The translations under genes were made by a program, and so were the position numbers. 64,000 nt of DNA from IMG/VR virus record IMGVR_UViG_3300008262_000055. One strand, 5' to 3'. This DNA comes from a virus. Its lineage: Duplodnaviria > Caudoviricetes. This document shows positions 31,008 to 44,963 of the stretch, piece after piece. Each line of letters opens with the position of its first letter. Positions within the stretch are counted from its first letter, which is position 1. The notes beneath the pieces are model-generated. The model saw only the letters and a program-made list of their open reading frames with translations, was not told where the DNA came from and ran no database searches.

Positions 31008-31990
31008 TGTGTATACCTCGCATTAAGTGGTTCTGAATAACTTTGTGCTTGATCAGAAATCTTTTTAAGATCAAACAGATTACAAAATTTCATCAATCTA
31101 ATACCAACCTGACTGATATTTTTATTAGCAGTAATAGCTGTCTGAATTGTTTGATTAATAATACCTTTGATATCGTCGGGTTGATGTGCTAGATCAATTA
31201 GTCTACGGTTGCGTTCATAATCTTCTAACACACGATGTTCTTTACCTTCGTGGTCAGTCCATCTCTGAAGCATGAGATTGTTCCACGAATATCCTTTGCT
31301 TTTACGATCTTCGAACGCTTCACTAAGACCCACTTTTTTGCTTGTGCCTTTAGTACGCACACCTGGATATGCCGAGAAGACATTATCACTGGTATCACCA
31401 CGCATACATTTTTCAAATAAGAGCCACTCTGGATCCGGTGCTGCTTTTTCTTCGCCTGTTTTTTTGTCTTTAACTTTGTTACCTTTGGCATCAAAATAAC
31501 CTTCGTGTGTAATAGTAACTTCGCTGACTCCGTTATATTGTTTAACGTTAGGAGCAATCAATTGTTCAAAGTCGCTATCTGTGGAAATTATTACATGTTT
31601 TGATTGTGGGTGATTTTGAATCCAGCCTGCAATAAGATCGTCGGCTTCTAGTTGAGGATTTTGTAGTACTGTACAATTTGTTTTGTCAGATACAAATTCT
31701 TTAAATGTATCAAATGCTTCCCAAAACAATTTATCTTCTTCTTGTTCTTTAGCAGTTAATGCCGCACGGGCATCGCTGCGATTACGTTTATAAGGACCAT
31801 AATAGTCTTTACGCCACGAGCGACCTTCTAAACAGAATATAACATGACTGCCGTTAAAATCCTGCCATGCTTTACGTATGGAATTTAAGGTAATATGAAA
31901 AGCCATGCCAATTTTAATGTCAGCGTCGCCGCGGACTACGTGTCTAGCACGAAAAAACGTGTTAGCAGTATCTACTAGTATATATGTCAT
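31004..31990 (-). CDS. rnh: T4 RNase H-like 5'-3' exonuclease (FEN family)
   Basis: ILVDTAN, EADDLIA, STDSDF and GDTSDN acidic motifs. Confidence 0.9.
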   Translation of the reverse strand: MTYILVDTANTFFRARHVVRGDADIKIGMAFHITLNSIRKAWQDFNGSHVIFCLEGRSWRKDYYGPYKRNRSDARAALTAKEQEEDKLFWEAFDTFKEFVSDKTNCTVLQNPQLEADDLIAGWIQNHPQSKHVIISTDSDFEQLIAPNVKQYNGVSEVTITHEGYFDAKGNKVKDKKTGEEKAAPDPEWLLFEKCMRGDTSDNVFSAYPGVRTKGTSKKVGLSEAFEDRKSKGYSWNNLMLQRWTDHEGKEHRVLEDYERNRRLIDLAHQPDDIKGIINQTIQTAITANKNISQVGIRLMKFCNLFDLKKISDQAQSYSEPLNARYTQ

Positions 31991-32415
31991 GAAACTTCAG
32001 ACTTTCCTTTAGAAATAGGTGTAACATTAATGTATCCTGCTGGTCTATTAGTATCCATACCTTCTTCTGATAACATTTGTCTTACAATGTCTCTAAACCA
32101 ACGATCTACGATTTCTTCCTCAGGGTCACCGTCAAAACCGTAACCCTCTTGCTTTAATTTTAACACAAATTGGTCGTTCCAGTCAAGTTCGAAAAAACCA
32201 TTTCGAATATTATCTGGATTTACTTTGGTATCGAGGACGCTAACCCAAGGCTCATTTTTATGAGTAGCTCTTTCTTTTGGTGTTAGTTTAGCCTGCTCAG
32301 CTTCTTCTTGTGCCCGAACTGTTTCGGCTACGGCTTTATCTCTGGCTGCTTGTAATGCTTCTTTTTCTGCCTTTAATTTATCGAGGCCAAACACTTTATC
32401 TATAATTTTTTTCAT
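31987..32415 (-). CDS. Hypothetical protein
   Basis: The ATG at 32415 overlaps the queE stop (TAATG). Confidence 0.65.
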   Translation of the reverse strand: MKKIIDKVFGLDKLKAEKEALQAARDKAVAETVRAQEEAEQAKLTPKERATHKNEPWVSVLDTKVNPDNIRNGFFELDWNDQFVLKLKQEGYGFDGDPEEEIVDRWFRDIVRQMLSEEGMDTNRPAGYINVTPISKGKSEVS

Positions 32416-33275
32416 TAAGTTCCCCACTCATTTTTAAATAACGGTACCTGTAGTCTGTCGCTATAACGTAAACCTGCTTTTATTGCTAGTTCAGCCACCC
32501 GTCGATTGTTAAGTGTGTAGACACTTTCTACACCTCCCACGGGCATCAAATATACAGGACCACTAAAACCTTCAGCACGATAAATGTCTACAGTCTCAAT
32601 AGCTTCTTCTGCATCTTCTTCTGTAGCTATTACAAATTTAAGATATGTATAACCAACTTCTTCGTATTCACACACCACACTTGGTAATATAGCTTCGTGT
32701 CTTGACTCTCCTGAACAGCTCAGTTTAGCACTTACACTGAAGGTTAATCTATGATAACCTCTATTTTCCATACCCCAGTCTAAAAGATATTTTTTAAATT
32801 CTGGAGTGAGCGGTTGAGTACCGTTTGTTTCAAAGGTAATCTCTTTGAGATTTTTCATCTTAGGATGATCTAACAGTTCGGGGTAAGCACGTTGCCACCC
32901 AAGCAGCGGTTCTCCTCCTGTGATGACGAGGTGTTCGTCTCTCCATTCATTGAACGGTAAAATCTCGCAGATTCTTTCTGCGATGGCGTCGGAAGTAAGC
33001 ATTGGGCTAAGGTCTTTAAAAGCAGGATGCCAGCTAGCGTAACTATCACAACCAGTAGAAACCAATGGAAGTTCTTCATATTTTTGAAATGATTCAATAT
33101 TTGCGTGTGTATAGGCAATGTCGTCGGCTTCAATGCTTATATCACCTTTAGGCATACCAAAGCCAGCACATTTAAAGTTACAACCAAATGTGCGTAAGAA
33201 CACAGAAGGTACGCCCATATAACGTCCTTCTCCTTGTACGCTGTAAAACAGCTCTGCGATTTTAATTTTGCTCAT
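32415..33275 (-). CDS. queE: 7-carboxy-7-deazaguanine synthase (radical SAM)
   Basis: IAELFYSVQGEG..PSVFLRTFGCN..GCDS..VITGGEP..ETNGT..LTFSVSAK; C-terminal RLQV. Confidence 0.85.
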   Translation of the reverse strand: MSKIKIAELFYSVQGEGRYMGVPSVFLRTFGCNFKCAGFGMPKGDISIEADDIAYTHANIESFQKYEELPLVSTGCDSYASWHPAFKDLSPMLTSDAIAERICEILPFNEWRDEHLVITGGEPLLGWQRAYPELLDHPKMKNLKEITFETNGTQPLTPEFKKYLLDWGMENRGYHRLTFSVSAKLSCSGESRHEAILPSVVCEYEEVGYTYLKFVIATEEDAEEAIETVDIYRAEGFSGPVYLMPVGGVESVYTLNNRRVAELAIKAGLRYSDRLQVPLFKNEWGT

Positions 33276-33540
33276 AGATGTTTGACCATTTTTTTAATTT
33301 TTCAAATTTAGCTTTTTTAGCACTTTCCATTTTGTCTTTGGAAATTATACCGTCTTTTTCTAAAAGATCAACCATAGCTAACAGGTCACCTAGTTCTTCT
33401 TCTAGATGCTCTCTGTTTGTCTTGGGCTTTCCTGGTTTGTAATTATCGATTCCAAAACGATTAATTTTAGAAACTGCTTGTATGACTTCGGAACATTCTT
33501 CTTGGAGAATGCTCATAATTTCGTGAGATTTAGTATTCAT
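33262..33540 (-). CDS. MazG-like NTP pyrophosphohydrolase
   Basis: LQEECSEVIQA..LEEELGDLL (EExxE..EExxD); likely start MNTKSHE at 33540. Confidence 0.75.
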   Translation of the reverse strand: MNTKSHEIMSILQEECSEVIQAVSKINRFGIDNYKPGKPKTNREHLEEELGDLLAMVDLLEKDGIISKDKMESAKKAKFEKLKKWSNIYEQN

Positions 33541-33546
33541 ACTAAT

Positions 33547-33576
33547 ATTATACACTCTCTTTGTTCTCGTTGTCAA
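33547..33576 (-). promoter_or_regulatory. sigma70 consensus promoter (probable leaderless transcript)
   Basis: TTGACA-N18-TATAAT, followed by 6 nt and then the ATG at 33540. Confidence 0.7.
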
Positions 33577-33715
33577 GCTTCTTAGATAACATCCAAGAAC
33601 CATCGCCATTATCTTTCCAAACTAAAACATCCCCTTCTTTCCAACCATTAGCTTCTAGGAGATCGGGCGGAAAGGTTATTACTCCGTCATCATCAATAGT
33701 TAAAACCCATTTCAT
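33548..33715 (-). CDS. AbrB/SpoVT-like small DNA-binding protein (not in the ORF track)
   Basis: MKWVLTIDDDGVITFPPDLLEANGWKEGDVLVWKDNGDGSWMLSKKLDNENKESV (55 aa) has an AbrB-type pattern. Confidence 0.7.
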   Translation of the reverse strand: MKWVLTIDDDGVITFPPDLLEANGWKEGDVLVWKDNGDGSWMLSKKLDNENKESV

Positions 33716-34295
33716 ACAACTTCTCCTTAATTCGTTGAGCTACAATTTTATTACCTTCTTCGGTATAATGATTTACTAGTCCTCTATGAAAGGTCCAGTG
33801 ACTAGTAAAATCCATGTGTAATTCTTCAAAAGCATGATTACAACTAGTTGGTGTATGATCTATAGCTAGATAAGGCAGCTTAATCAATCTACGAATTTCT
33901 CTTCTAACAATATCGTAGATATCTGTTTGATATTGTTCATCATAATGATGTTTGAACCAATTGTAGGCTGTAACAGTACTTTCATTTTTAGGATCTAGAT
34001 TAGCTTCTACATCACTAAAGATCAAATCACAGTTAGCGTGTAACTTGCTTTGATGTATGGGATTAAGGGTGTGAACTCTAAAAGGACTAGTATGATTTAC
34101 TATTACTAAATCAAATTTATCTAAATTTTGATTCTTAATCTGATTTAATATTTTATATTCACCTACTCCGGCCTGAGAAACGTTAGTAATATTATAATCT
34201 TTTTTTAATAACTCGGGCCAACCAGACGGACTGTCGGGCCATTTAGCAGAGAAACTATCACCTGCTAATAAAATTTTTAAATTGTTTTTAGCCAT
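33693..34295 (-). CDS. SGNH/GDSL-like protein
   Basis: LLAGDSF (block I), QAG (block II), NHY near the C-terminus. Confidence 0.6.
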   Translation of the reverse strand: MAKNNLKILLAGDSFSAKWPDSPSGWPELLKKDYNITNVSQAGVGEYKILNQIKNQNLDKFDLVIVNHTSPFRVHTLNPIHQSKLHANCDLIFSDVEANLDPKNESTVTAYNWFKHHYDEQYQTDIYDIVRREIRRLIKLPYLAIDHTPTSCNHAFEELHMDFTSHWTFHRGLVNHYTEEGNKIVAQRIKEKLYEMGFNY

Positions 34296-35095
34296 GGAAT
34301 AAATTTAGTAGCAATTAAATCGTGAAACGATTTGTTGTAGTGTTCATTGTCGTCAAGATAATATTTTTTGTGATCAATGAATTTCTTTCTAAAGAACGAT
34401 TCTACTGTAACAGGTGATATTATAGTAGACTTTAATTTTGTATAAAAATCAAACTTTTCCGGAAATTTTACTCTGTCGGTCATATTAAACAGATAGAGTT
34501 TACAACCGTGATCTTCACACATTCTATCCATAACAAGTACATCTTTAAAAAAATCTCTTTGTTCTAGATGAGTATTTAGATCAAAGAATAATTTTACATC
34601 CATGTATGTATCTTTTCGGAGATCTGGTTTTATTAGACCATTTTGATAATCAAAATTAATATCAGCAATTTTTCCAAAATCTTCAAATGTTGGTTTGTTA
34701 AGAAGTTGAAAACGATCGTCTTTAAATATTTGATCATAATACAGATCAACTAACGGATTCTTTTTTTCGTGTTTTAATGTAAAAAAATCTGCCGGTAATG
34801 TATCTTGCGAAAGAGTTTCGTTAAACGCAAGAACAAATCTATTAAAGCTAGATAATAAAACATACACTTCGTCAATGTCGGGGTGTCTATCTAACATAAC
34901 ACGTAACCAATCTGGATATATTCGATTACACACGCCCGGTAACGCATACACCGATGTTGGCTTAGAAAAAGTTTCAGCGTATGACTCTGCGTAGCTATTA
35001 TCATTCCACATACTATAACTACCAAAGCCAACCTTGCCGGGAATAGTTACATATCCGCACGTATGACTATCGCCTAAAAATAATGCCCTACTCAT
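34277..35095 (-). CDS. SGNH/GDSL-like protein
   Basis: LFLGDSHT (block I) and DNEH (DxxH, block V). Confidence 0.6.
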   Translation of the reverse strand: MSRALFLGDSHTCGYVTIPGKVGFGSYSMWNDNSYAESYAETFSKPTSVYALPGVCNRIYPDWLRVMLDRHPDIDEVYVLLSSFNRFVLAFNETLSQDTLPADFFTLKHEKKNPLVDLYYDQIFKDDRFQLLNKPTFEDFGKIADINFDYQNGLIKPDLRKDTYMDVKLFFDLNTHLEQRDFFKDVLVMDRMCEDHGCKLYLFNMTDRVKFPEKFDFYTKLKSTIISPVTVESFFRKKFIDHKKYYLDDNEHYNKSFHDLIATKFIPWLKTI

Positions 35096-35295
35096 GTGGT
35101 ATACCTGCTGTTATTTTTCTCGTGATATTCTTTTCTTAATCTACGACACTCTTCTTTAACTTCGATAGGAAAGTCAGGGCTGATTTCAGATATAGTACAA
35201 TCATAAATTTTAGTCCGCGGGTTTCCTAAGTCAGAAGTTAACATAATGAATACACAAAATAGCACTGCTATAATTATGATAATCCTGTCTCTCAT
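35092..35295 (-). CDS. Small membrane-anchored protein
   Basis: MRDRIIIIIAVLFCVFIML hydrophobic N-terminus; two further Cys. Confidence 0.55.
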   Translation of the reverse strand: MRDRIIIIIAVLFCVFIMLTSDLGNPRTKIYDCTISEISPDFPIEVKEECRRLRKEYHEKNNSRYTT

Positions 35296-35486
35296 ATTTC
35301 CTCGCTGATCATTAGCTTGCAAAAGAAAGCATCTTTTTCGTTTTTAAAAAAGAACTTCATATCGTCAGCAGACACTTCAGTAGTGTATTTGTCCCCTGGC
35401 AAACCAAAGTGTTCAAGGATTTTAGCACAAGTTTCGTTCCAAAAAACATTACTTTGATTTTTCCAAGGTATCTTAATTTCAGTCAT
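35292..35486 (-). CDS. Hypothetical protein
   Basis: 64 aa, overlapping neighbours. Confidence 0.55.
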   Translation of the reverse strand: MTEIKIPWKNQSNVFWNETCAKILEHFGLPGDKYTTEVSADDMKFFFKNEKDAFFCKLMISEEI

Positions 35487-35682
35487 TAAAATATTTTTCC
35501 ATTACTTCAAGTTTATCCATATATTCAGCAATCTGAGCAACTTCTTTTTCAATAGCATCCATAAGATCTGTATGATCGTGAATGGCCATAGGATTAGCTA
35601 ACATAATGTCAACATTCATTTTATGTTTTAGAATGTGTGCTTCGAAATGTTGCTTTAGTGTTTCGACAATTTGCTTTTTCAT
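35479..35682 (-). CDS. Hypothetical protein
   Basis: 67 aa helical hairpin-like ORF. Confidence 0.55.
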   Translation of the reverse strand: MKKQIVETLKQHFEAHILKHKMNVDIMLANPMAIHDHTDLMDAIEKEVAQIAEYMDKLEVMEKYFND

Positions 35683-36071
35683 TTTGATTTCCTATAATTT
35701 CCCTTTTCGGGTATTACATGTCTAACCCCACCTGTGGGATCTTCCATGTCGCCTTTGCGTCTCGGTATTAGATGAACATGTGGCCATTCAACAGTTTGAC
35801 CAGCAGCTTTACCATAGTTGAGACCTACGTTAAATCCGTCCCATATACCCTGCTCTACTTGTAGTTTGCCAAATCGAACAGCATCTTCAATCGAGTCCAT
35901 CAACACAGCAACGGTGTTGTATTTAGGTACATATAATAGATGGCCTTCAGTTACTGGATATTTGTCAGCAAATACCTTAGTATGAAAGTCTTCGCTAATA
36001 ACAGTTTCCCATGGAGCGTCTGTTGAATCATCAATACACGGAGGTTGACTGTGTATTACGGTTTGGTTCAT
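35679..36071 (-). CDS. HIT-family nucleotide hydrolase
   Basis: DKYPVTEGHLLYVPK..GFNVGLNYG..AGQTVEWPHVHLIPRR; the first His of HxHxH is replaced by Trp. Confidence 0.9.
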   Translation of the reverse strand: MNQTVIHSQPPCIDDSTDAPWETVISEDFHTKVFADKYPVTEGHLLYVPKYNTVAVLMDSIEDAVRFGKLQVEQGIWDGFNVGLNYGKAAGQTVEWPHVHLIPRRKGDMEDPTGGVRHVIPEKGNYRKSK

Positions 36072-36295
36072 CGTTGAAATTCCTTACGTTCTTGTGGTAG
36101 ATCGTTTTCTCGAACTACAAATTCACGCCCGCCTAAACTTCCTACAAATGCTTTGGTACGTTCCATATAGGCCAATCTTAGTTTAATAGTTTGGAATGCT
36201 ACTTCTAAAAATGCTTTAGGTTTGTATCCTAAAATATGCATATCAAAGTCTTTGCCTGCGTCTGTACAGTGAACTTTAATTTTTTGATCAATCAT
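36068..36295 (-). CDS. Hypothetical protein
   Basis: About 75 aa with ATGA overlap. Confidence 0.55.
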   Translation of the reverse strand: MIDQKIKVHCTDAGKDFDMHILGYKPKAFLEVAFQTIKLRLAYMERTKAFVGSLGGREFVVRENDLPQERKEFQR

Positions 36296-36798
36296 TTCGT
36301 CCACCAATCTTCAAAAGGAAAATCAATCCAAACATCTTTTTCTGCTTTGTTTATCTCTTCGCCAATATAATCCATTGGCACTTCAGCTTTGCTAGCAAGA
36401 TTATCAAACACAGTGGCAAATCTTACATTGTCATTCCACACTTCGGCCCATTTGGAATCGTTAGAAAAACATCCACTAGGCCAGTCATTTAAAATCCAAT
36501 TAATTGTAGCACCAGTATCGTTGATATCATCAACAATGAGAATCTTCTTGTCATTAAACGCATCTTCAGCCATCCACAGATTGCTTTCAGTAGCGTGTTC
36601 CCCGCCGTTGTCTCTAAGGCTTACCTTTAATGCTTCACATGGCACATTAAAATATTGACTGATCATTACAGCAGGTAATAATCCGCCTCTAGTAATTCCT
36701 ACTATATAATCAGGACGCCAACTACTTAAACTGATATCTCTACATATTTTTGCTATCAGGTTTTGGAATTCTATCCAACTAACTTTACGCTTTACCAT
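36292..36798 (-). CDS. Type I phosphoribosyltransferase (Gpt-like)
   Basis: IVGITRGGLLPA; PRPP-binding motif ILIVDDINDTGAT; WIDFPFE. Confidence 0.9.
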   Translation of the reverse strand: MVKRKVSWIEFQNLIAKICRDISLSSWRPDYIVGITRGGLLPAVMISQYFNVPCEALKVSLRDNGGEHATESNLWMAEDAFNDKKILIVDDINDTGATINWILNDWPSGCFSNDSKWAEVWNDNVRFATVFDNLASKAEVPMDYIGEEINKAEKDVWIDFPFEDWWTK

Positions 36799-37249
36799 TA
36801 GACTCCTTACGTTGTGCTATATATTTTTCGTTTTGTATCCATTTGTTGTTAACAAGAAATCCCCATTCTCTTTTTTGAGGACCTGGCATGAATAACGTCC
36901 AAGCAGTTACTCCTTCTTTTAGCTCAATACGATGATAACTGTTTGGACTACAAATTCTAAAATGACCAGGGCCACGCCAGTATTTTATTTCGTTAATTTT
37001 TTTACCTAGAGTGTTAAACACTGGGACCCATTCGTAGTACCCACCAGCAAGAATTAGTGTAGCATACGGCCATGGATGATCATGAACATCATCGGGATCA
37101 CCTTTTAAGAACTTATGTAAGAATATGTTAAAGGGAAAACGCTCGCGATCTTTAAGAAAAAGATAGTAGCGTTCTAGATATGGTTCGTTATCTACACGAT
37201 CCATGATGATACGTTTGCGACCTAGTCGTTCAAGCAGTTTCAACAACAT
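36785..37249 (-). CDS. Cupin-fold metalloprotein
   Basis: VHDHPW..LILAGGYYE..YHRIEL..WTLF cupin metal motifs. Confidence 0.7.
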   Translation of the reverse strand: MLLKLLERLGRKRIIMDRVDNEPYLERYYLFLKDRERFPFNIFLHKFLKGDPDDVHDHPWPYATLILAGGYYEWVPVFNTLGKKINEIKYWRGPGHFRICSPNSYHRIELKEGVTAWTLFMPGPQKREWGFLVNNKWIQNEKYIAQRKESNGKA

Positions 37250-37652
37250 CTCTTACCTCTTGGTCTAGATAACGGATTAATTCTTTGTCAGTAGGTTCGA
37301 CAGTATAATTCTGTTTGAAAAAGATCTCATAACTGTCTGAACCATATTTACCAATGCCATATAATATTGTAGCATCATTTCCGTCCCAGGTCAAATAACC
37401 TCTGCTCATTCCGATCAATCTCTTATAACGGACATTAACCATTCCCAAAGGCTGTATGATGCTTTTGACGAATTCTTCATCAGCGTTTATCAGTGTGATA
37501 GGATCGGGAAACCAATATAGGAATTCTGGCAGGCAGGTCTTAACAGGCTTTCGACTGGTCTGATTAAGCATTATGACACCTACAAAGTGTTCCCATGAGT
37601 TCGAGATCTGTTGTTGTACCATTAGGTCGTCACGTAGAGGGTTGAACCACAT
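37230..37652 (-). CDS. MBD4-like HhH-GPD DNA glycosylase domain
   Basis: WEHFVGVIMLNQTS..FLYWFP..AD..IIQPLGM..LYGIGKYGSDSYEIF closely parallels the MBD4 catalytic domain (LHGIGKYGNDSYRIF), with the catalytic Asp present. Confidence 0.8.
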   Translation of the reverse strand: MWFNPLRDDLMVQQQISNSWEHFVGVIMLNQTSRKPVKTCLPEFLYWFPDPITLINADEEFVKSIIQPLGMVNVRYKRLIGMSRGYLTWDGNDATILYGIGKYGSDSYEIFFKQNYTVEPTDKELIRYLDQEVRDVVETA

Positions 37653-37654
37653 GA

Positions 37655-37726
37655 TTATTTCCTAATAAAGATCCATAAGATGACACCAACGACGATTCCA
37701 ACTATCATACCTAGAGCGAACAGCAT
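37655..37726 (-). CDS. 23-aa single-pass membrane peptide (not in the ORF track)
   Basis: MLFALGMIVGIVVGVILWIFIRK*; exactly fills the gap with TAATG coupling. Confidence 0.55.
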   Translation of the reverse strand: MLFALGMIVGIVVGVILWIFIRK

Positions 37727-37944
37727 TATTCTACTCCTTCGCCAAACCAGTCATCGACCTGCTGTTCAGCTTCTTGCTGTGTCATGGCATGTACGAATAT
37801 TTTAGCAAGTTCACCTTGAGTATGTTGAATATTAAATTTAATAACACCTGCAGGGATCAAATCCCAGTCTCTTTCAACTACAAATTCTTGTAGATGTTTC
37901 ATTCTGTGTATTAAATTATCTGTGAGGGCTTTGGCTGTGCTCAT
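37726..37944 (-). CDS. Hypothetical protein
   Basis: 72 aa, ATGA overlap with the folE stop. Confidence 0.55.
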   Translation of the reverse strand: MSTAKALTDNLIHRMKHLQEFVVERDWDLIPAGVIKFNIQHTQGELAKIFVHAMTQQEAEQQVDDWFGEGVE

Positions 37945-38777
37945 CTTGGGGCAAACTCCTGTTGTAGTTTAATGTTATCAAAGAATTCTTTCTTAGTATT
38001 GCCGTCGTCTTTGAAAGCACCTTTTAATACTGTAGTCTGTGTAAGACTAGAGTGTGCCATAATACCGCGATTCTCACAGCATCCGTGTACTGCTTGGATG
38101 TAGACACCTAGATCTTTGGCTCCTGTGGCACGTTCGATCTCCCTAGCAATGTCATTACAAAGTTCCTCCTGGAGAGTACCTCGACGGGCACACCACTGAG
38201 CGATCCTTGTATACTTGCTAAGTCCGATGAGTTTCTGAGCCGCAATAAGACCAATATAAGCAACACCAGTAACGGGTTGGTGATGATGGCTGCACATGCT
38301 ACGAAGCTCACTGCGAACAACCAACATACCTTCATAACGATCCGCTGTGTCGTTGGGAAATGCTGTTGCGTCTGGTGCTGGTTCATATCTTCCTGCCATT
38401 ATTTCATTAAAATACATCTTAGCCAGTCTACGTGCTGTACCCTGACTGTTAGGATCGTTTTCACGATCAATCAGCAAACGATCTAGCACTAGTTCAAATG
38501 CTTCTGTTGCTTCGTCGATTAGTTTTTCTTTATCGCCTTCGTGTAAGAAGTCGCTGATATTATCTCCAGCCCAGAATCGTTTTCCTTCACGCTTCATTTT
38601 AAAGCGAAGATGATCACCAAGATATGCTTCTTTGTAGCCACCGTCGCCTGCCATTGCGTCAAGTGCTGTTTCTTTTTTAATATAAACCGTTTTACCTAAT
38701 GGTTCATATTTTTCTTCTTTAAAATCTTTATTCACATCTGCGTGAATTACAGGATCCGGTGTAAATTTGGTTGTCAA
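37941..38777 (-). CDS. folE: GTP cyclohydrolase I
   Basis: SMCSHH, GLSKYTRIA, LQEEL, HGCCENRG; TTG start with GGAG SD. Confidence 0.95.
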   Translation of the reverse strand: MTTKFTPDPVIHADVNKDFKEEKYEPLGKTVYIKKETALDAMAGDGGYKEAYLGDHLRFKMKREGKRFWAGDNISDFLHEGDKEKLIDEATEAFELVLDRLLIDRENDPNSQGTARRLAKMYFNEIMAGRYEPAPDATAFPNDTADRYEGMLVVRSELRSMCSHHHQPVTGVAYIGLIAAQKLIGLSKYTRIAQWCARRGTLQEELCNDIAREIERATGAKDLGVYIQAVHGCCENRGIMAHSSLTQTTVLKGAFKDDGNTKKEFFDNIKLQQEFAPR

Positions 38778-38812
38778 TTATTTTTCTCCGAGTTATTGTC
38801 GTGGATGACATA

Positions 38813-39913
38813 TTATTTTAACATCTTTAATAGTTTATCGCAACTAAAGAAATCATTCGTTAATATATCGACCTGTTTATTTAGGCTTGGTAAAAACTTT
38901 TCATAATTTTCCATGTACTGGATTATCTTATGGCAGACTTCTTTCCTGTGGATTTCATATGATTCAAAAGATTCAGTCCATTCGCTAGGATACTTAAATG
39001 TATCAAACGCCATTTCACTGTAGCTTAATCTATCAGGAACCATAGGAATAGCATCTACTAACGCACCTTCGTACCAGCTAATGCCTAGTGTTTCTTGTAA
39101 ATTAGCACTGAACACTAACTTTGCCTCTCCTAGCATATTATGATATTCATTTTTTGTCAACGGGTATTCTTGACAGACTTTGAACTCATATTGAGGAAGA
39201 TGTTTTTTAAGATCTTCAAAGATTGGCAATTGTTTTTCTGGAGCAATACGATGTGGAAATAGTATAAGATTACGTTTAGGCATATTCTTATACATTAACA
39301 ATGTATCAGACATATATTCCATAGGCCATCCAGAACGAACTACATTTTTCCATTCGCCTTTAAGGGCATCTGCTACATCGTCTTCTATCCAAGGATTTTC
39401 AAACATTCCGTCATTGATAAGGTTACGGATAAACATCTCAATATGAAAATTTGTAGCAAAGTAGTTGTGATCAAATGCGTAGAAGAAACTCTTCTCGGCA
39501 TTTCTAACCCAAGGCTTATTGCCTACAAGACGACCTAGGAAGTCTTGAGGATCATAACTGCCAGCATGCCATAATCCGTGTGTTGTTACCGGAATGCCCA
39601 GCAGTTCACTCATGTACTTTAAGTTTATGATACCAGGATGCCAAGCATCAGTAAAAATAAAGTGATCACCGGGATGAACGGCTCCGTTACAAAATAAGCG
39701 GCCCATCTGCTCAACCTGATTAGCTTTGTATATATTGGTACCACCAAAATTAAGAAAGGCACCAGGAGTAGTGGCACTAGGAATATCCTGAGGGCCAGAG
39801 ATAATTTGAACATCATGTCCCCTTTTTTGTAACAAGGTAGGCAAGTGAGATTTCCACTGGCCTGTGTACCTTGTTTCTACTGCTTCGAGATCTACAAGAA
39901 ATACCTTAGCCAT
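38813..39913 (-). CDS. GT-B (GT4-like) glycosyltransferase
   Basis: Likely start MAKVFLVD at 39913; ILFPHRIAPEK and QETLGISWYEG (ExxGx4E) GT-B signatures. Confidence 0.8.
   Translation of the reverse strand: MAKVFLVDLEAVETRYTGQWKSHLPTLLQKRGHDVQIISGPQDIPSATTPGAFLNFGGTNIYKANQVEQMGRLFCNGAVHPGDHFIFTDAWHPGIINLKYMSELLGIPVTTHGLWHAGSYDPQDFLGRLVGNKPWVRNAEKSFFYAFDHNYFATNFHIEMFIRNLINDGMFENPWIEDDVADALKGEWKNVVRSGWPMEYMSDTLLMYKNMPKRNLILFPHRIAPEKQLPIFEDLKKHLPQYEFKVCQEYPLTKNEYHNMLGEAKLVFSANLQETLGISWYEGALVDAIPMVPDRLSYSEMAFDTFKYPSEWTESFESYEIHRKEVCHKIIQYMENYEKFLPSLNKQVDILTNDFFSCDKLLKMLK
38815..38843 (-). promoter_or_regulatory. sigma70-like promoter for folE
   Basis: TTGCGA-N17-TAAAAT with a TGn extended -10, 38 nt upstream of the folE start. 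Confidence 0.55.
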
Positions 39914-40124
39914 GGCGTTTATTGTATGGCTTGTATCCACGATCCGTGTAGCCACGATTGTTATCCCAACGTCTTGGAGGACGTTGACTATTTAAAAACG
40001 CACGATAATTTTCATTATCTTTATTGTATAAATGTGCGGGATTAAACTCACGCAACTCGAAACGGCAAAAATCCAAGTAGCGGTCGAGATCGTCAAAGAT
40101 TTTCTCAACTTGTTGTTTCATCAT
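39906..40124 (-). CDS. Hypothetical protein
   Basis: 72 aa; AAGGA SD. Confidence 0.6.
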   Translation of the reverse strand: MMKQQVEKIFDDLDRYLDFCRFELREFNPAHLYNKDNENYRAFLNSQRPPRRWDNNRGYTDRGYKPYNKRHG

Positions 40125-40133
40125 GTTTCCTTT

Positions 40134-40341
40134 TTAATATTTGATGAATGAACCATTTTCTCCGTCTTCGGAGACCTCAATCCAAACCTCACGGTCTGGG
40201 TACTTTGCGTGAATCTGAGCGTATAAATCATCGCTCATCATCTCACAACTCTTATAGTCTAGCGACAATACACCTTCGTTGCTAGAATACAATTTTTCCA
40301 ACCATCGTTTGAATTGTATAAATTCCACATCTCTGTCATTG
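40134..40341 (-). pseudogene. 3' remnant of a T-fold/QueD-like protein
   Basis: NDRDVEFIQFKRWL..SCEMMSDDL..VWIEVSEDGENG resembles the C-terminal half of QueD/PTPS-like T-fold proteins. The N-terminal half is absent and replaced by another gene's 5' part in a different frame. Confidence 0.6.
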
Positions 40342-40531
40342 CGTCTCTAGTCATATGAAAGTTATATGTGCTTGAAGAATTAACCTTGCCATCATCATTT
40401 AGACATTCTTGAATAATATCTACAGAAAATAATCCTTTAGGATTGATAGATTCCCAAGATTCTACACGAACCCTATATGCTGGACTTTCTTTAACAGTGA
40501 TGTTTTTAATATTTAGATCAGTGTGTCTCAT
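40342..40531 (-). pseudogene. 5' part of a hypothetical protein fused out of frame to the QueD-like remnant
   Basis: MRHTDLNIK..YNFHMTRD continues into MTEMWNLYNSNDGW, which is the off-frame reading of NDRDVEFIQFKRW. Confidence 0.55.
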
Positions 40532-40881
40532 CTTTTTAATGACTCCATCATTACAATTTTACCCAACGCATCACCAAGATCTTGATCTTCAGTGATAACG
40601 TGCATGCTATTAAAATTACGATCTTTGTGGCTATCGTAACTACGAGTTTCTACAACATAGCCGCCACTGGCTTTGTAAATCTGTAGACGCATACCATCAC
40701 TACAAAGTCTGTCCGATTCTACTACTTGAGGAATATCTTGTTCATACTCGTCGCTGTTCAACCAATTACGAATACGTTGTCTAAATGTTAGTTTCACTTT
40801 CGTTGCCTTTTTTATTTTACGACTGGGTCTAATTGCTTGATGTTTAGCACCAGATATAGTTGCGTAACCCATAGTTCCCAT
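40528..40881 (-). CDS. Hypothetical protein
   Basis: 117 aa, overlapping neighbours. Confidence 0.6.
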   Translation of the reverse strand: MGTMGYATISGAKHQAIRPSRKIKKATKVKLTFRQRIRNWLNSDEYEQDIPQVVESDRLCSDGMRLQIYKASGGYVVETRSYDSHKDRNFNSMHVITEDQDLGDALGKIVMMESLKR

Positions 40882-41438
40882 TATTTGATGATCTCATCCT
40901 TGCCATATTGGTCCCAATCTGTAAAGCGATCTCTTCCCAGAAGGTCCTGTAGGTTATGGCACCATACCCCAGAATTAGTTGCGTTAAAATCTTTGTCGTC
41001 AATCTTTAATGTAGCGTTATAACCTAATTGATTTAGATAAGGTAATTTTACACTAATTTGCGGAATAAATCTACGTTTTTCGGTAAGACCGCTCTCTAGC
41101 AATCCTTCCGTTTCGCGTACATCAAAATCTAATGTACACCACAGATCATATTCACTATCTAAACATACATAGATCATACTTTCCCAAGGACGCCAAGTTT
41201 CCGAATCATTAGTGCCCTTAGTTTTAAAACTTTGATTAGCACCAAAGTAGATATGCTTGATATGTTTAGATTCGTCTGTGTAAGATCTACTTTCTTTGAC
41301 CATTTCTAAAATAATGTAAGGATCATGTACACCTACTACAAATAGAGTTTTCATTCCATAAGCAGGAGTCTTTTCAATCTCTACACCTGTAAAAAATGTA
41401 ATGTTATCTTTTATACCATCTTTATAATCACGTTTCAT
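40881..41438 (-). CDS. Hypothetical protein within the deazaguanine island
   Basis: 185 aa; FFTGVEIEKTPAYG..HIYFGANQSF..KIDDKDF..GVW. Function not recognised. Confidence 0.65.
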   Translation of the reverse strand: MKRDYKDGIKDNITFFTGVEIEKTPAYGMKTLFVVGVHDPYIILEMVKESRSYTDESKHIKHIYFGANQSFKTKGTNDSETWRPWESMIYVCLDSEYDLWCTLDFDVRETEGLLESGLTEKRRFIPQISVKLPYLNQLGYNATLKIDDKDFNATNSGVWCHNLQDLLGRDRFTDWDQYGKDEIIK

Positions 41439-41935
41439 TCTTCAAACCCCGATGATTTCATTTCACGGCTTCTCATACGTTCTTGATATTCTGCTTCATG
41501 CTTGTCGCAAAGTGTGCGGATCCACCCACCATTACGAGATTTGCCAGGATCTCCACAAGTTTCGCAAGTCCTAGCCGCCCACGATTCTGCCATACGCACC
41601 ATACCATGAATCTGTTCATCGCCACCGTCGTAATAAAAACGCAGCCCGCCAAATTTTTCTTTGACCTGTACAGCGACTACTTGATCAATAGCATCTGGAA
41701 CTTCTCTTAGTTCCTCTGGTGCGGCCTTGCTGTTAAATGTAATTGCCCATTGACGTTGTTTTTCTTTCCAATCAATGTGATGTTGAATATTACCGCATAG
41801 GCTATCGAGGACGTTATACCAACCATCGCCGCATTCAAACCCCCAACACATAAGTGTTTCTTTCATGTCTCCATGACGGTTTTTGAAAATTTTTGGATAT
41901 TTGCTACACAGTGCTTCGTCAAGTTCTTGTTTCAC
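41435..41935 (-). CDS. Conserved phage protein with C-terminal Zn-finger-like motif
   Basis: GFECGDGW, QVKEKFGGLRFY, CETCG..LCDKH. Confidence 0.65.
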   Translation of the reverse strand: MKQELDEALCSKYPKIFKNRHGDMKETLMCWGFECGDGWYNVLDSLCGNIQHHIDWKEKQRQWAITFNSKAAPEELREVPDAIDQVVAVQVKEKFGGLRFYYDGGDEQIHGMVRMAESWAARTCETCGDPGKSRNGGWIRTLCDKHEAEYQERMRSREMKSSGFEE

Positions 41936-42159
41936 CAGGTGCTCACATCAGTGATATCAACGGTAGTATCGATGTCCTTATCGATATCGTTGAATAGATT
42001 GAATTTTACAACAACGGTAGGACCAATTCCGCTGCTGCTACTTTCTTCTAGAGTGAACCACTCAACTTCTTTAAAGTGAGCGGCCATTTTTGCCAATTTT
42101 TCAATTTGACCTCGATTGAGGCAAAACTGAGCCGGTTGATACTTTTTATCTTTCGTCAT
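41932..42159 (-). CDS. Hypothetical protein
   Basis: Likely start MTKDKKY at 42159. Confidence 0.55.
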   Translation of the reverse strand: MTKDKKYQPAQFCLNRGQIEKLAKMAAHFKEVEWFTLEESSSSGIGPTVVVKFNLFNDIDKDIDTTVDITDVSTW

Positions 42160-42358
42160 CGTCGTAATGGATAGTTTCGTGATCATGTTCCCATTGCTTA
42201 CGTTTAAGTATAGCAATTTCATCCTTTACTGTCAACTTATGTTTCTTCAAATCAGTCAATCTTTGGTCAGTAAAGTTGCCAGTTCTTTCCAAAGTTTCAA
42301 TTTGCTTGTCAAGTGCCCTGTGTGCTTCTTCCAAATGCTTGATTCTATTTTCATACAT
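42146..42358 (-). CDS. DUF465-like coiled-coil protein
   Basis: RIKHLEEAHRALDKQI..LKKHKLTVKDEI matches the DUF465 pattern. Confidence 0.65.
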   Translation of the reverse strand: MYENRIKHLEEAHRALDKQIETLERTGNFTDQRLTDLKKHKLTVKDEIAILKRKQWEHDHETIHYDDDER

Positions 42359-43877
42359 TCTGAGCCTCCTGTTCGTAATAAAGTTCTTCCAATTCTTTTA
42401 GCTTTTCATCTTCTGGGTCCATAAAATCTTCTACAGCACCAGTTTTGGCTTCTTCTTCGAATAAACTATTAAATTGATTTTTAGCAACACCGCCTTTAAG
42501 ACGCATACCCATCATATTATTGAGCATTGGACGAGCTTGTTCAATCATCTGCATTGGAGTTTCACTCTTAAACAATTCTTTTACGAATCGATCAAAGTAA
42601 AGTATATTTCTAGGCACCCAGTCTGAGTATTCATCACTCATGTCTGAGTCTTTGACCTTCTTCCATTCTCTCCAATCCGGATCAAATCTTGCTGTTTCGA
42701 TATCCATTAAATTATTGGCACGTTGTACTGCTTTAATATGACAGTAGGTATTATGTGCCATCATTAGAGCATAACCAAAACTGTCCCATGATGTTTTACC
42801 TTCTTTACCTACTTTGTTTAACATTCCTGGTTTATACCAACAAATGTCTCCTTGAGTAAGTCTTCTTCCTATTTCTGATTCGAAAGGGAACGGGATGTTA
42901 AAAGCCTGGCTAAGGGCTTTATTGTCGGGGGCTTTGTCCATGATGACTGACCAACGTTTGTTGGTATGTTGGGCGTTGGTGTAGACAAGTCCGTGGGCTG
43001 TTGCGATAAACGGGCTGGCACAATCAAAAGATATGGTAAAGTTTTCATTGATATTTTCCCTTACTTGACGTTGAATAGAAGTTAGATAGCAGGACCAATC
43101 CAACTGGGCTGTACCTAAGAAGTGCATCCAGTTCCTATCATCTAAGAGTTTTTCGTCTCTAAGAATAATAAGGCGTTTCAATGCGATTTCCATATCGCAC
43201 ATATTTTTACCACCCATCGCCCAACCTTCAGTTGGCAGATGTTTAACCGCTTCATACCAAGCCTGTGCTGTTTCCCAATCGCTGCCTTGTAGCACGTTTA
43301 AGAACTTGGTTTGCCCTAATCGATTACGAATGAAATAATCATTATTGTGTAAAGTTTTATCTAAGCAATCATTAAAACTTTTTAAACCAGTTTTTGGACT
43401 ATGAATATGATCACACGCCCACGTAGGCACGTCTAACAACATCGACCAGTCGGCAGTTAATTCTAACCAGTTAAGGATATTATCTCGAACTTTATTTGCA
43501 GCGGCACCTTCAAAGTTTTGCCAATCAAATTTAAGAACACCTTTACCAATCTGATAACCACCGGAATCACCTACAATCACTGTATTAGCACGATCTCGAT
43601 CTTGTATCATAGCATCCTGTGTTATGGTTTTATTTAGATCTAACTGTGCGTGACCTGCTGAATACAGTCCGTACTTGTAAGTAAAGTATCCTTCTTCCGG
43701 ATTTAAAAAGTTCATACCTTCGATGCCTCGATCAAAGCCTTTGGGAATTCGATCATCTGGAACAAATTTATCAAATCTTTGTTTGCTGACGTAGGTGCTA
43801 AAAAAGCAGCTAATGGCTGGCAGATATACTGCGTAATCTTTTTGTAAAGGTGTTAAATTAACTGGTGGCTGTTTCAT
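42351..43877 (-). CDS. tRNA/DNA-guanine transglycosylase-like protein (TGT/DpdA family)
   Basis: VGDSGGYQ (TGT nucleophile-region motif), MLLDVP, NVLQG, WAMGG, MHFLG, SFDCASP (second Asp), MAHN. Confidence 0.75.
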   Translation of the reverse strand: MKQPPVNLTPLQKDYAVYLPAISCFFSTYVSKQRFDKFVPDDRIPKGFDRGIEGMNFLNPEEGYFTYKYGLYSAGHAQLDLNKTITQDAMIQDRDRANTVIVGDSGGYQIGKGVLKFDWQNFEGAAANKVRDNILNWLELTADWSMLLDVPTWACDHIHSPKTGLKSFNDCLDKTLHNNDYFIRNRLGQTKFLNVLQGSDWETAQAWYEAVKHLPTEGWAMGGKNMCDMEIALKRLIILRDEKLLDDRNWMHFLGTAQLDWSCYLTSIQRQVRENINENFTISFDCASPFIATAHGLVYTNAQHTNKRWSVIMDKAPDNKALSQAFNIPFPFESEIGRRLTQGDICWYKPGMLNKVGKEGKTSWDSFGYALMMAHNTYCHIKAVQRANNLMDIETARFDPDWREWKKVKDSDMSDEYSDWVPRNILYFDRFVKELFKSETPMQMIEQARPMLNNMMGMRLKGGVAKNQFNSLFEEEAKTGAVEDFMDPEDEKLKELEELYYEQEAQNV

Positions 43878-44226
43878 GTTCTCTCGCTAAAATTGTTGTA
43901 AGTTCTAATCTAGTCTTTGCCTGTTCTAATTGATCTAATGCTATACGAACTGCTTCGTTGCTAGAAGCCAGCTTGTACCATTCATTTTCTTGAGCACGTT
44001 TCTTACGTGCCCATTGAACTATATCTAATACGTCTTGATCTAGGCCTACAGTAGCATAACTGGTACTCATGTTGATCCATGAGTTGCCGTCAAACACCTG
44101 CATATCATTACCCCATACACGGAGCATACCTTGTATAGGATTGTTGTTGTTTTGATTAATGTACGGCATACTGGTGTTACCACCAGTTACCGTTAACCCG
44201 CTAATACCTTGTAGACCTTTAATCAT
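43858..44226 (-). CDS. Hypothetical protein
   Basis: 122 aa, TAATG-coupled to the clamp gene. Confidence 0.6.
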   Translation of the reverse strand: MIKGLQGISGLTVTGGNTSMPYINQNNNNPIQGMLRVWGNDMQVFDGNSWINMSTSYATVGLDQDVLDIVQWARKKRAQENEWYKLASSNEAVRIALDQLEQAKTRLELTTILAREHETATS

Positions 44227-44963
44227 TATTGTTGCTGTGCTGGAATAATGTATTTGTAAGTAGCAAGTCCGCTGTCTAAAGTGATTTGGATAGCACCTTC
44301 ATTACTTAAAGCCATTTTAGTATTGTTAACATCAGCAGCTTTTAAGATACTTAGAATTGGAAGTACTGGCCATGTCCATCCGCGATCAAGTTTACCTACT
44401 ACATTCTGTGCGAATACAAATTCGCCGCCGTGTGTTGAAGCATCGCCAAATATAAACTTTAGATTATTGCCATCTGTTTTTGCCAAGAATGTTGGATGTT
44501 CACTATGAGCACCTGCCTGAAAGTTAAAACGTGTAACAGAAGCTACACTTGGCTCAAGCTCTACATCCCACTTAACACCACGGAACTTAACTGTTTTCAT
44601 CTTTTCGTTGATGATTTCTTGATTCATAAAACGATAATCGTTCTTAAAGTCGCCATCTTTGTTTTCAAAGTGAATACCAACAGGAATAGTTTCTCCGTTA
44701 CGTTCTGCTGTAGTAATGTTTATCTTAGCATCCTCTTTGTATTCTGGACCGTCTATTAGATATTTTAATTTCTGTAGTTGCGGCATTCCAAATGTACCAA
44801 TCATATCTGGATATGGATTGTGTGTGCTAGCTTCCATAATTACTGAACGGTCATCAGCCATTGAGAAGATGCTTGTGCCTTCTTCTGTGCCTGTGACCTT
44901 AACTGTGGTTAAGAAGCCTAGGTTTTGCGTATGTGATACGATGTCTTGTAAAATATCTTTCAT
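44226..44963 (-). CDS. DNA polymerase sliding clamp (gp45-like)
   Basis: 245 aa alpha/beta protein next to PolB, with a PCNA/gp45-like C-terminus (ITLDSGLATYKYIIPA). Confidence 0.65.
   Translation of the reverse strand: MKDILQDIVSHTQNLGFLTTVKVTGTEEGTSIFSMADDRSVIMEASTHNPYPDMIGTFGMPQLQKLKYLIDGPEYKEDAKINITTAERNGETIPVGIHFENKDGDFKNDYRFMNQEIINEKMKTVKFRGVKWDVELEPSVASVTRFNFQAGAHSEHPTFLAKTDGNNLKFIFGDASTHGGEFVFAQNVVGKLDRGWTWPVLPILSILKAADVNNTKMALSNEGAIQITLDSGLATYKYIIPAQQQ

Follow-up and report, generated by a model that had tools for sequence, protein, structure and literature searches.

A probable QueC-independent 7-deazaguanine DNA-modification island in the replication module of an uncultured freshwater jumbo phage

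RESULTS

Organization and conservation of the island

The stretch of DNA analysed here (the window, 64,000 nucleotides) comes from an uncultured jumbo phage of fresh water, a relative of Pseudomonas phage PA5oct, and carries, at 32415–43877, a 7-deazaguanine island whose genes all lie on the minus strand, as do the neighbouring replication genes described below. The original prediction had placed at these coordinates an island for nucleic-acid modification, with a TGT/DpdA-type enzyme and a GT-B enzyme and without QueC or QueF; the genes do lie at the stated coordinates, and this part of the reading was supported. The island adjoins the DNA polymerase gene (45026–47692; phrog_262, 3.8e-203) in the replication module. 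The same gene order recurred in 80 related viral contigs, so that the arrangement is more than chance.

Presence of each gene was counted over 29 relatives, each with 10 kb or more of flanking sequence at the locus. The genes first listed as a single island behave unequally: the core was kept (26–29 of 29 loci), but half of the listed genes come and go among these relatives, so that MazG, the two SGNH-like ORFs, the MBD4-like glycosylase and several of the small unknowns rank as accessory. The glycosyltransferase (GT), a 185-aa protein and QueE were found in every locus, DpdL and the cupin in 28, and the phosphoribosyltransferase (PRTase) and HIT protein in 27. Conserved additions to the core are the GT, the 185-aa protein (at 40881), the PRTase, the HIT protein and the cupin.

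The Pseudomonas jumbo phage PA5oct (Arenbergviridae) encodes in the same order the polymerase, a 245-aa protein, a DpdA-like enzyme (43% identity), the GT (41–47%), DpdL (EST35_0318, 52% to the fragment present here), the PRTase (24%), QueE and RNase H; its FolE and two PTPS genes are located elsewhere in its genome. It differs in that the two PA5oct stretches compared yielded no homologue of the 185-aa, cupin, HIT, MazG, MBD4-like or SGNH-like ORFs; a short epimerase-like ORF takes their place there.

Route to the deazaguanine

Two predicted biosynthetic enzymes were readily recovered. FolE (GTP cyclohydrolase I; 37941–38777; Pfam PF01227, 130.9 bits) is extended N-terminally by about 90 aa and is 54% identical to FolE of Vibrio phage 2.275.O. 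The QueE-like radical-SAM CDG synthase (32415–33275; phrog_2076, 7.9e-50) shares 31% and 49% identity with QueE of PA5oct and BUCT-ZZ01, respectively. The third, a "QueD-like" protein, had to be reinterpreted: QueD-like sequence is indeed present at 40134–40341, but according to sequence matches it is the C-terminal half of a truncated DpdL, a QueD paralogue and proposed CDG decarboxylase, which also matched DpdL of Cellulophaga phage phiST at E 9e-5. The 5′ half of dpdL, including the HRH motif, is missing from the assembly. In relatives the intact protein is about 125 aa long and carries LANPHRHIF, with the LxxxHRHxF signature. The truncation corresponds to a 218-bp gap against every relative (positions 13538–13755 of locus L016), and public contigs from four runs, each of a different study, read on from exactly 40338/40341 into the half that is absent here. 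Since dpdL is intact in relatives and in these contigs, the gap is probably an artefact or a minority variant. No true QueD was detected in the window by tblastn with phage references; all five long relatives encode it elsewhere, about 48 kb from the island.

The noted lack of QueC, QueF and Gat held throughout the window: none occurred among the 25 families listed (down to E 5e-12; Pfam scan, 44 further ORFs), a cut-off below which a weaker match may lie concealed, nor did tblastn with phage QueC, Gat-QueC and QueF references return a match. QueC was likewise not found in the complete PA5oct genome or in a CheckV-complete relative, which contains only a TilS-like PP-loop protein. A DpdL-type, QueC-independent route from CDG to 7-deazaguanine (DG) has been proposed for phiST, whose DpdL/DpdA3 system yields 2′-deoxy-7-deazaguanosine (dDG) (Cui, Hutinet et al., NAR 2023, PMC10516641). 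This route would account for the missing QueC, and with DpdL intact in relatives we read the absence as its signature and not, as first suggested, as a gap to be filled by the host. Like the present system, that of phiST combines FolE, QueD, QueE and DpdL without QueC; its cluster contains a MazG-like gene and adjoins the polymerase, and phiST encodes a homologous PRTase as well (CGPG_00045, 31% identical). It differs in holding QueD within the cluster instead of 48 kb away, and no GT homologue was found there among the matches listed; the 185-aa, HIT and cupin proteins were not among the phiST genes compared.

A TGT-fold enzyme beside the polymerase

The gene at 42351–43877, placed between the polymerase and RNase H, encodes a divergent 508-aa TGT-fold base-exchange enzyme, termed DpdA-like. 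For its AlphaFold model (pLDDT 90.9), the best 50 Foldseek matches listed were all TGT (top E 1.6e-8), and VIA aligned 306 residues with T. maritima TGT (Z 18.6, rmsd 4.5). In hhalign with E. coli TGT (88%), D104, D149 and D285 align with Ec D89, D143 and D264, so that the three catalytic or substrate-binding aspartates are kept; D104, S105, G107, H252 and D285 were invariant across 62 diverse homologues. With the bacterial enzymes (Z. mobilis, T. maritima, E. coli) it shares the TIM-barrel (Z 17–19) and aligned DSGGxQ, LD/FD aspartate and FDC nucleophile motifs. It differs from them in a low identity (about 15%), in the absence of the zinc CxCxxC...H site, in an additional 130-aa helical/disordered C-terminal region and in its replisome context.

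The enzyme falls short of the Pfam TGT threshold. By hhalign it is related to DpdA of Acidovorax phage ACP17 at profile level only (96.9%; 424 aa there), and to the 259-aa phiST DpdA3 at 66% over just 83 columns, with 0.5% probability for DpdA of phage 9g. Its homologue in Vibrio phage 2.275.O adjoins QueF, a YhhQ-type transporter, a queuosine biosynthesis gene and FolE.

Between the polymerase and this gene, in 77 of 80 loci, lies an ORF for a 245-aa protein (44226–44963; phrog_12062), at the position of the annotated processivity factor in phage 9g; a PDB sequence search gave no match. The floppy acidic C-terminal tail of the 508-aa enzyme contains NQFNSLF, a peptide resembling the polymerase C-terminus NTFSKLFDFE, and complex prediction of the 245-aa protein with this tail gave a weak signal (0.59 versus 0.29 for the best control). 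The 245-aa protein is a possible sliding clamp.

That the nearest solved folds, among the Foldseek and VIA matches listed, are all tRNA-guanine transglycosylases could mean that the enzyme acts on phage or host tRNA. We consider this very improbable: the sequence lacks the CxCxxC zinc subdomain and is related to ACP17 DpdA, its gene sits in the replication module, its tail carries a peptide resembling the end of the polymerase, and PA5oct DNA resists several restriction enzymes that cut at G sites (PMC12191111). The target would be DNA, and the incoming base putatively DG, CDG or another base.

A glycosyltransferase and a 185-aa protein accompany dpdL and dpdA

The predicted GT-B enzyme is genuine and is by fold of the GT4 type (38813–39913; the ORF, 38813–39955, encodes 380 aa, and homologues start at Met15). 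Its AlphaFold model (pLDDT 77.6) matched BshA, MshA and glycogen synthase in Foldseek (E 5e-8, TM about 0.6), and the motif E288-x7-E296 is invariant. Homologues occur in PA5oct, Phosso, ACP17 and BUCT-ZZ01. In four lineages (that of the window, PA5oct, ACP17 and BUCT-ZZ01) the GT gene is the direct neighbour of dpdL, and from this conserved adjacency a role of the GT in the deazaguanine pathway is likely. The 185-aa protein (40881–41438) matched nothing in Pfam, PHROG, NCBIfam or PDB, and Atlas gave weak GT-A-like leads only (0.85–0.89). It is homologous to ACP17 gp122, which adjoins the dpdA of that phage (hhalign 98.4%).

The ACP17 cluster (gp119–gp126), also beside the polymerase, comprises QueD, FolE, gp122, gp123 (DpdA), gp124 (GT, 34% identical), gp125 (DpdL, 54% identical) and QueE, and differs in having no PRTase, HIT or cupin within the stretch viewed. 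As the GT and the 185-aa protein keep their place beside dpdL/dpdA there too, both are most likely part of the pathway.

The island might alternatively make plain dDG, as phiST does apparently without a GT (none from phiST among the GT matches listed), with the GT, 185-aa, HIT and cupin proteins serving other ends such as a pterin glycoside, a host envelope sugar or the glycosylation of virion proteins. In Foldseek the GT matches small-molecule GT4 enzymes, among them a tetrahydrobiopterin glucosyltransferase (9v0l); the pterin could come from FolE together with a PTPS-type enzyme; and in other phages the cupin family shows no tie to Que genes. DG has no obvious acceptor group, and no obvious hydroxyl for a glycosyltransferase, which weighs against a decorated base. 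The T4-type DNA glucosyltransferases, by comparison, act on the hydroxyl of 5-hydroxymethylcytosine. They resemble the present case in that a GT-B enzyme is encoded alongside a phage DNA base-modification pathway. The cases differ in the base, here a purine analogue for which no acceptor is known, and in the GT, which here resembles small-molecule GT4 enzymes. Plain dDG is nevertheless the less probable outcome, if a real possibility, given that the GT occurs in all 29 relatives and directly beside dpdL in four lineages whose gene order otherwise shuffles, and that the 185-aa family travels with dpdA, GT and dpdL in ACP17 as well.

Nucleotide-related and accessory genes

The remaining family assignments of the original prediction stood, with one exception. 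The PRTase (36292–36798; Pfam Pribosyltran, 53.5 bits) belongs to the Gpt-type purine (6-oxopurine) enzymes and matched PDB 1VDM (E 1e-10) and E. coli XGPRT (1e-3). Its annotated phage homologues belong to the phiST and immuto groups and BUCT-ZZ01, one further match being an unannotated 4-kb faecal fragment. The HIT-family nucleotide hydrolase or transferase (35679–36071; Pfam HIT, 35.6 bits) matched PDB HIT proteins and Ap4A phosphorylase. The cupin (36785–37249; phrog_4786, 1.2e-37) belongs to the 'cysteine dioxygenase' phage family, widespread in unrelated phages, where it does not adjoin Que genes. Among the accessory genes, the MazG-like NTP pyrophosphohydrolase (33262–33609; Pfam MazG, 31.6 bits; phrog_4856, 2.7e-27) was found in 6 of 29 relatives and the MBD4-like HhH-GPD DNA glycosylase (37230–37652; PDB 4ew4, E 1.8e-16) in 14; in the latter, GIGKYGSDSY aligns with GIGKYGNDSY and the catalytic Asp is kept. 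The exception concerns two adjacent ORFs of 200 and 272 aa (33693–35095; 13–14 of 29 relatives), originally called SGNH proteins. They gave no family match in Pfam or PHROG; with N-terminal GDSFS and GDSHT motifs and an Atlas lead to DUF6071, which 38% of the members carry in one neighbouring cluster, they are possibly SGNH-like.

The PRTase could also point to a pre-replicative route, in which it joins DG or CDG to PRPP, kinases and ribonucleotide reductase convert the resulting 7-deazaguanine nucleotide to a dNTP for the polymerase, MazG and HIT clear competing nucleotides, and the TGT-like enzyme patches leftover G or acts otherwise. In the tubercidin and toyocamycin pathways a PRTase does act on CDG or preQ0. 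Here the enzyme is purine-type, kept in 27 of 29 relatives and shares its island with MazG and HIT; it has annotated homologues in BUCT-ZZ01 and in phages of the phiST and immuto groups, which have been shown to replace all G, and ADG was observed as a nucleoside in CP220-infected cells (PMC10516641). We judge this route unlikely: a TGT-fold enzyme that is conserved and retains its catalytic aspartates stands by the polymerase in every relative, MazG is kept in so few of them, the PRTase is accounted for just as well by guanine salvage, and, as Cui et al. argue, insertion is post-replicative in every case known (PMC10516641).

DISCUSSION

Taken together, the island is best explained, with good though not full confidence, as a replication-module copy of a QueC-independent, DpdL-type 7-deazaguanine DNA-modification system. 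Synteny, co-conservation, catalytic residues and the assignments to families and folds are shown here, and the substrates, the DNA target and what the GT and the PRTase do are inferred. FolE would turn GTP into H2NTP, from which a QueD encoded elsewhere than in the window would form CPH4; QueE would yield CDG, and DpdL would convert CDG to DG, the step proposed for phiST (PMC10516641). The 508-aa enzyme, which belongs to the TGT/DpdA superfamily and is long and zinc-less, would then replace guanine in the phage DNA by the deazapurine, perhaps at the replication fork via its clamp-binding-like tail, and the Gpt-type PRTase may return released guanine to GMP and GTP, refilling the FolE substrate pool.

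Replacement in DNA is supported by the PRTase homologues in the groups that replace all G. Weighing against it are the truncation of dpdL as assembled, the weak similarity of the 508-aa enzyme to Pfam TGT, 9g DpdA and phiST DpdA3, the occurrence of the cupin family in many phages without Que genes, and the finding that dpdL with dpdA, of phiST and also of ACP17, produced no dDG in E. coli (PMC10516641).

With the GT and the 185-aa protein most likely in the pathway, we infer that the final base is dDG or a further-decorated derivative; a sugar-bearing deazaguanine is possible, and a glycosylated or acylated product a possibility. Since the GT and the purine-salvage PRTase are conserved with the module, the final DNA base may be one not yet described.

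Gene content of the island

The island genes occupied a minus-strand span from a family-B-like DNA polymerase (45026-47692; phrog_262, 3.8e-203) to a 5′-3′ exonuclease/RNase H (31004-31990), and a megablast search with the island had no match among GenBank phages. Most of the enzymes named in the original prediction were recovered by profile searches, all of them on the minus strand: FolE (GTP cyclohydrolase I) by Pfam PF01227 (130.9 bits; cut-off 27), a QueE-like radical-SAM enzyme (CDG synthase) by phrog_2076 over its full length (7.9e-50), and likewise a MazG, a HIT protein, a phosphoribosyltransferase (PRTase), an HhH-GPD protein and a cupin of the phage ‘cysteine dioxygenase’ family (phrog_4786, 1.2e-37). 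The QueE-like ORF scored 25.3 bits with Pfam Radical_SAM, under the cut-off of 29.5.

The PRTase carried the Pfam PRTase domain (53.5 bits) and its nearest solved relatives were archaeal purine/6-oxopurine phosphoribosyltransferases (1VDM, E 1e-10; Sulfolobus GpT-1 and GpT-2), followed by E. coli XGPRT (1e-3). By domain and nearest solved relatives it is thus a predicted 6-oxopurine phosphoribosyltransferase of the Gpt type. The HhH-GPD protein matched the glycosylase domain of MBD4 (E 1.8e-16), with GIGKYGSDSY aligned to GIGKYGNDSY and the HhH hairpin followed by the catalytic Asp, in agreement with the MBD4-like glycosylase proposed earlier. The two ORFs previously described as SGNH proteins carried the block-I-like motifs GDSFS and GDSHT, the sole blocks seen of the four; they had no Pfam, PHROG or NCBIfam match, and an Atlas search gave a lead to DUF6071.

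A candidate zinc-less branch of the DpdA/TGT superfamily

The 508-aa ORF (42351-43877), held from the outset to be a TGT/DpdA-type enzyme, had no match in Pfam, PHROG, NCBIfam or PDB sequences, and no meaningful match came from searching PDB sequences with its family by phmmer or profile. The family was assigned by fold comparison and hhalign. An exhaustive homologue search yielded 944 representatives at 50% clustering, and 62 diverse homologues were taken for alignment and for an AlphaFold model (pLDDT 90.9). All of the best 50 Foldseek matches of this model were tRNA-guanine transglycosylases (top E 1.6e-8, probability 1.0). The TGT TIM-barrel fold was also evident with VIA-align, which superposed 306 residues on T. 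maritima TGT (Z 18.6, rmsd 4.5) and gave Z 17.4-17.7 for the Z. mobilis, human, mouse and archaeal enzymes.

The hhalign comparison with E. coli Tgt (88% probability) placed the segments VGDSGGYQ, LLDVPT and SFDCASP on those containing D89, D143 and D264. D104, D149 and D285 hence correspond to these three residues and to Z. mobilis D102, D156 and the nucleophile D280. D104, S105, G107, H252 and D285 were invariant in the 62 homologues, and D149 nearly so. As for the zinc motif CxCxxC...H, no CxCxxC occurs anywhere in the 508-aa sequence. The TGT family PF01702 did not match the window protein and gave weak matches in three of the 62 homologues (best E 0.0045). A rival reading of a transglycosylase with such relatives is tRNA modification. 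Among accepted phage DpdAs, the family aligned best with that of Acidovorax phage ACP17 (96.9%, E 1.4e-10) and was more distant from DpdA3 of Cellulophaga phage phiST (66% over 83 columns) and from DpdA1 of phage 9g (0.5%). The TGT fold and the three aligned catalytic aspartates thus bear out the initial assignment, and we take the ORF to represent a new branch of the DpdA/TGT superfamily, long and zinc-less, with base exchange in DNA as its predicted activity. The family is very abundant, numbering over 7,900 clusters at 90% identity, none of which has a Pfam domain; it carries no annotation in public records and corresponds to no Pfam family.

The polymerase and the DpdA-like enzyme have an NxFxxLF peptide in common, located at the C-terminus of the former (NTFSKLFDFE, in ...DNTFSKLFDFE; 45026-45060) and in the disordered tail of the latter (NQFNSLFEEE, in ...KNQFNSLFEEE; 42441-42480; pLDDT below 50). 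F..LF was enriched in the family's tails, being present in the last 90 residues of 96/119 close and 15/88 diverse homologues versus 3/364 background windows. Between the two genes lies that of a 245-aa protein (44226-44963), a putative sliding clamp whose profile found nothing among PDB sequences. A predicted complex of the DpdA-like tail with three copies of this protein scored 0.59 (best control 0.29), with run agreement of at least 69% and partner pLDDT of at least 48. Of 80 solved complexes, 58 attained the pass mark, as did 2 of 110 mismatched pairs; scores up to 0.60 accounted for only seven of the passing solved complexes and for both mismatches. The prediction faintly suggests that the tail might dock on the 245-aa protein.

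A GT4-like glycosyltransferase

The 380-aa glycosyltransferase (GT) ORF probably starts in fact at Met15, the position where its homologues begin. Its AlphaFold model (pLDDT 77.6, loops uncertain) had the two Rossmann domains of the GT-B fold, and Foldseek matched it to BshA, the GT4 enzyme BA1558, MshA and glycogen synthase (E 5e-8 to 2e-6, TM 0.57-0.63) and also to tetrahydrobiopterin glucosyltransferase. It carried EX7E, the C-terminal motif of GT4 glycosyltransferases, as E288-TLGISWY-E296, both glutamates being invariant in 35 homologues. The fold together with this motif substantiates the GT-B enzyme of the original prediction; the acceptor is not readable from the modelled fold. Two neighbours of DpdA-like homologues, gene 469 of Vibrio phage 2.275.O and gene 441 (‘primase’) of phage Phosso, proved unrelated to the GT.

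A dpdL remnant and a proposed route that dispenses with QueC

A QueD-like gene had been assigned to the island. No QueD was found in the window, and the small ORF concerned (40134-40328) is instead a remnant of dpdL, homologous to EST35_0318 of Pseudomonas jumbo phage PA5oct (52%) and to CGPG_00067 of phiST (E 9e-5). CGPG_00067 is DpdL, a QueD paralogue and proposed CDG decarboxylase yielding 7-deazaguanine, in which the signature LxxxHRHxF replaces the QueD motif CxxxHGH (PMC10516641). Relatives carry an intact dpdL of ~125 aa with either LANPHRHIF (L016, L017 and L023), an exact fit to the published signature, or LGYPHRHIF (L024 and L074). In the window, 218 bp corresponding to positions 13538-13755 of the related record L016 are missing at 40338-40341, and with them the 5′ half of the gene, encoding the N-terminal half of DpdL; the signature was accordingly not found in the window's own sequence, having been deleted with the gap. 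The 218 bp are missing by comparison with all 80 related loci.

We aligned to the region contigs from four freshwater runs in public data, representing four studies. Those matching either flank continued at exactly 40338/40341 into the missing part, which encodes HFRVWLSVTH at one edge and SSRRRIDVS at the opposite one, and none bridging 40338/40341 in the deleted form was seen among the records listed. The portion of dpdL read in them lies just 3′ of the HRH motif (HFRVWLSVTH). Because they run on into the missing letters at precisely these positions, the truncation probably arose in assembly or reflects a minority variant.

QueC and QueD were also sought in the genomes of relatives. QueD was present in 5/5 long relatives; in G002, a relative of 96% identity, its distance from the DpdA-like gene is ~48 kb, which would place it outside the window. 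The QueD motif read CSTLHGY in L101 (764-2864) and L102, as in phiST QueD, and in three relatives QueD was flanked by the same two ORFs (196 and ~231 aa). The original prediction had pointed to a lack of QueC and QueF. That absence held in our searches of the window, but it is not a gap: no QueC was found in the complete PA5oct genome, the sole PP-loop protein of the CheckV-complete relative G004 is TilS-like, and relatives carry DpdL, so that the absence is what the DpdL route predicts.

A QueC-like PP-loop gene of G002 and of another relative, G005, which in G002 lies far from the island, was not counted in the pathway, because it is missing from the complete G004. The G002 protein carries SGGADS and a C-terminal CGECFWC (QueC E 0.0019, below cut-off), and its gene directly precedes that of a radical-SAM/SPASM enzyme (L098:979-2965), ~66 kb from the DpdA-like gene. 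It probably belongs to another biosynthetic island and not to the deazaguanine route.

Conservation of the island genes

Gene content was counted over the 29 related viral contigs in which the DpdA-like gene is followed downstream by 10 kb or more of sequence. Gene order was kept in relatives. The 185-aa protein (40881-41438), the GT and QueE were present in all 29, DpdL and the cupin in 28/29, PRTase and HIT in 27/29 and FolE in 26/29. The MBD4-like glycosylase (14/29), the two GDS-motif ORFs (13-14/29) and MazG (6/29) were found less often and count as accessory. We make no claim on the fold of the 185-aa protein, since its family had no PDB or Pfam match and its Atlas scores were below 0.9. 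Nor is the cupin confidently placed in the pathway, as no Que genes were found in its neighbourhoods in phages Salvo, MiCath and Rey. In Xylella phage Salvo (L109) and Pseudomonas phage MiCath (L110), which are unrelated, a MazG-like pyrophosphatase is encoded two or three genes away from the cupin, and this proximity hints at a nucleotide-related role for the cupin family.

Related clusters in other phages

PA5oct has the same order of polymerase, 245-aa protein, DpdA-like enzyme (EST35_0316), GT (EST35_0317), DpdL, PRTase (EST35_0321), QueE and RNase H. Its DNA resists several restriction enzymes, a pattern that the authors put down to a modified G (PMC12191111). Between DpdL and PRTase it carries EST35_0320 (L009:18416-18934), a 172-aa NAD-dependent epimerase-like ORF (Pfam Epimerase, 6e-7), at a position taken by other genes in the lineage of the window. 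The ACP17 run is QueD, FolE, gp122 (185-aa family, hhalign 98.4%), DpdA, GT (34%), DpdL (54%) and QueE, and that of Synechococcus phage BUCT-ZZ01 is QueE, PRTase, one ORF, QueD, FolE, two ORFs, DpdL and GT. DpdL and GT are therefore neighbours in four lineages, those of the window, PA5oct, ACP17 and BUCT-ZZ01, whose clusters are otherwise rearranged.

Annotated phage homologues of the PRTase were found in the phiST group, the Flavobacterium immuto group and BUCT-ZZ01; the phiST and immuto groups were shown to replace all G, in a 2023 reference paper that mentions neither PRTase nor GT (PMC10516641). No publication linking these was found among those searched. Newly described here for this window are the dpdL gap, probably an artefact, the core/accessory split and the relationship of the 185-aa protein to its ACP17 homologue.

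Proposed pathway and product

From the observed families, folds, catalytic residues and co-conservation, we infer a route in which GTP would be converted to CDG by FolE, QueD and QueE, and CDG to 7-deazaguanine by DpdL, and in which the DpdA-like enzyme would then exchange G in DNA. As a helper, the PRTase would make GMP from guanine and PRPP, the released base being recycled into the GTP pool feeding FolE. A rival explanation also uses the PRTase, in a nucleotide-level, pre-replicative route. Further probable members of the pathway are the GT and the 185-aa protein, with HIT perhaps another.

A sugar-bearing 7-deazaguanine, made by the GT4 enzyme with DpdL and the 185-aa protein, is a plausible if rather unlikely product. 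The sugar could be added on the free base or after insertion into DNA, perhaps following oxidation of the electron-rich C7 or C8 by the cupin. The rival here is plain 2′-deoxy-7-deazaguanosine, the base of phiST, with the GT serving another product. If the sugar-bearing product were real, these phages, among them the cultured PA5oct, ACP17, BUCT-ZZ01 and Phosso, would have DNA containing a purine analogue that bears a sugar, a type of DNA base found in no publication searched, and a guanine-recycling loop completed by the Gpt-type PRTase would make full replacement affordable.

Genomic surroundings

A ThyX gene (flavin-dependent thymidylate synthase; 27484-28152, minus strand; Pfam Thy1 6.4e-45) opens a minus-strand block of replication and nucleotide genes, and a dCMP deaminase domain was detected by Pfam among the minus-strand ORFs outside the island. 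A 108-aa minus-strand ORF (51320-51646) ends in CGCGSSFSI, an A-type Fe-S carrier motif, and one member of the scanned ORF set matched Pfam Fe-S_biosyn (7e-18); this carrier-like protein could feed clusters to the radical-SAM QueE. In a block-level Pfam tally, the minus-strand block 47761-63857 held ClpB-type AAA+ domains, DnaJ with DnaJ_C, PhoH and peptide deformylase, i.e. host-like proteostasis and stress genes. A single 3152-aa ORF (57-9515, plus strand) starts the plus-strand, presumably structural, half.

Significance

With 7-deazaguanine bases in their DNA, phages are protected against restriction enzymes as well as some of the newer defence systems. The island is real and strongly conserved, a predicted 7-deazaguanine DNA-modification island of the known DpdL type, to which it adds a new DpdA branch and unexplained conserved genes. 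The QueC-less DpdL-type pathway thus reaches beyond a few marine siphophages, into a very abundant freshwater jumbo-phage group and the therapy candidate PA5oct. The conserved GT, PRTase and 185-aa companions could explain why no product was obtained from dpdL and dpdA alone in E. coli. Finally, cultured phages with the module may offer a new DNA base, enzymes for DNA-modification biotechnology and a trigger of END-type nucleases.
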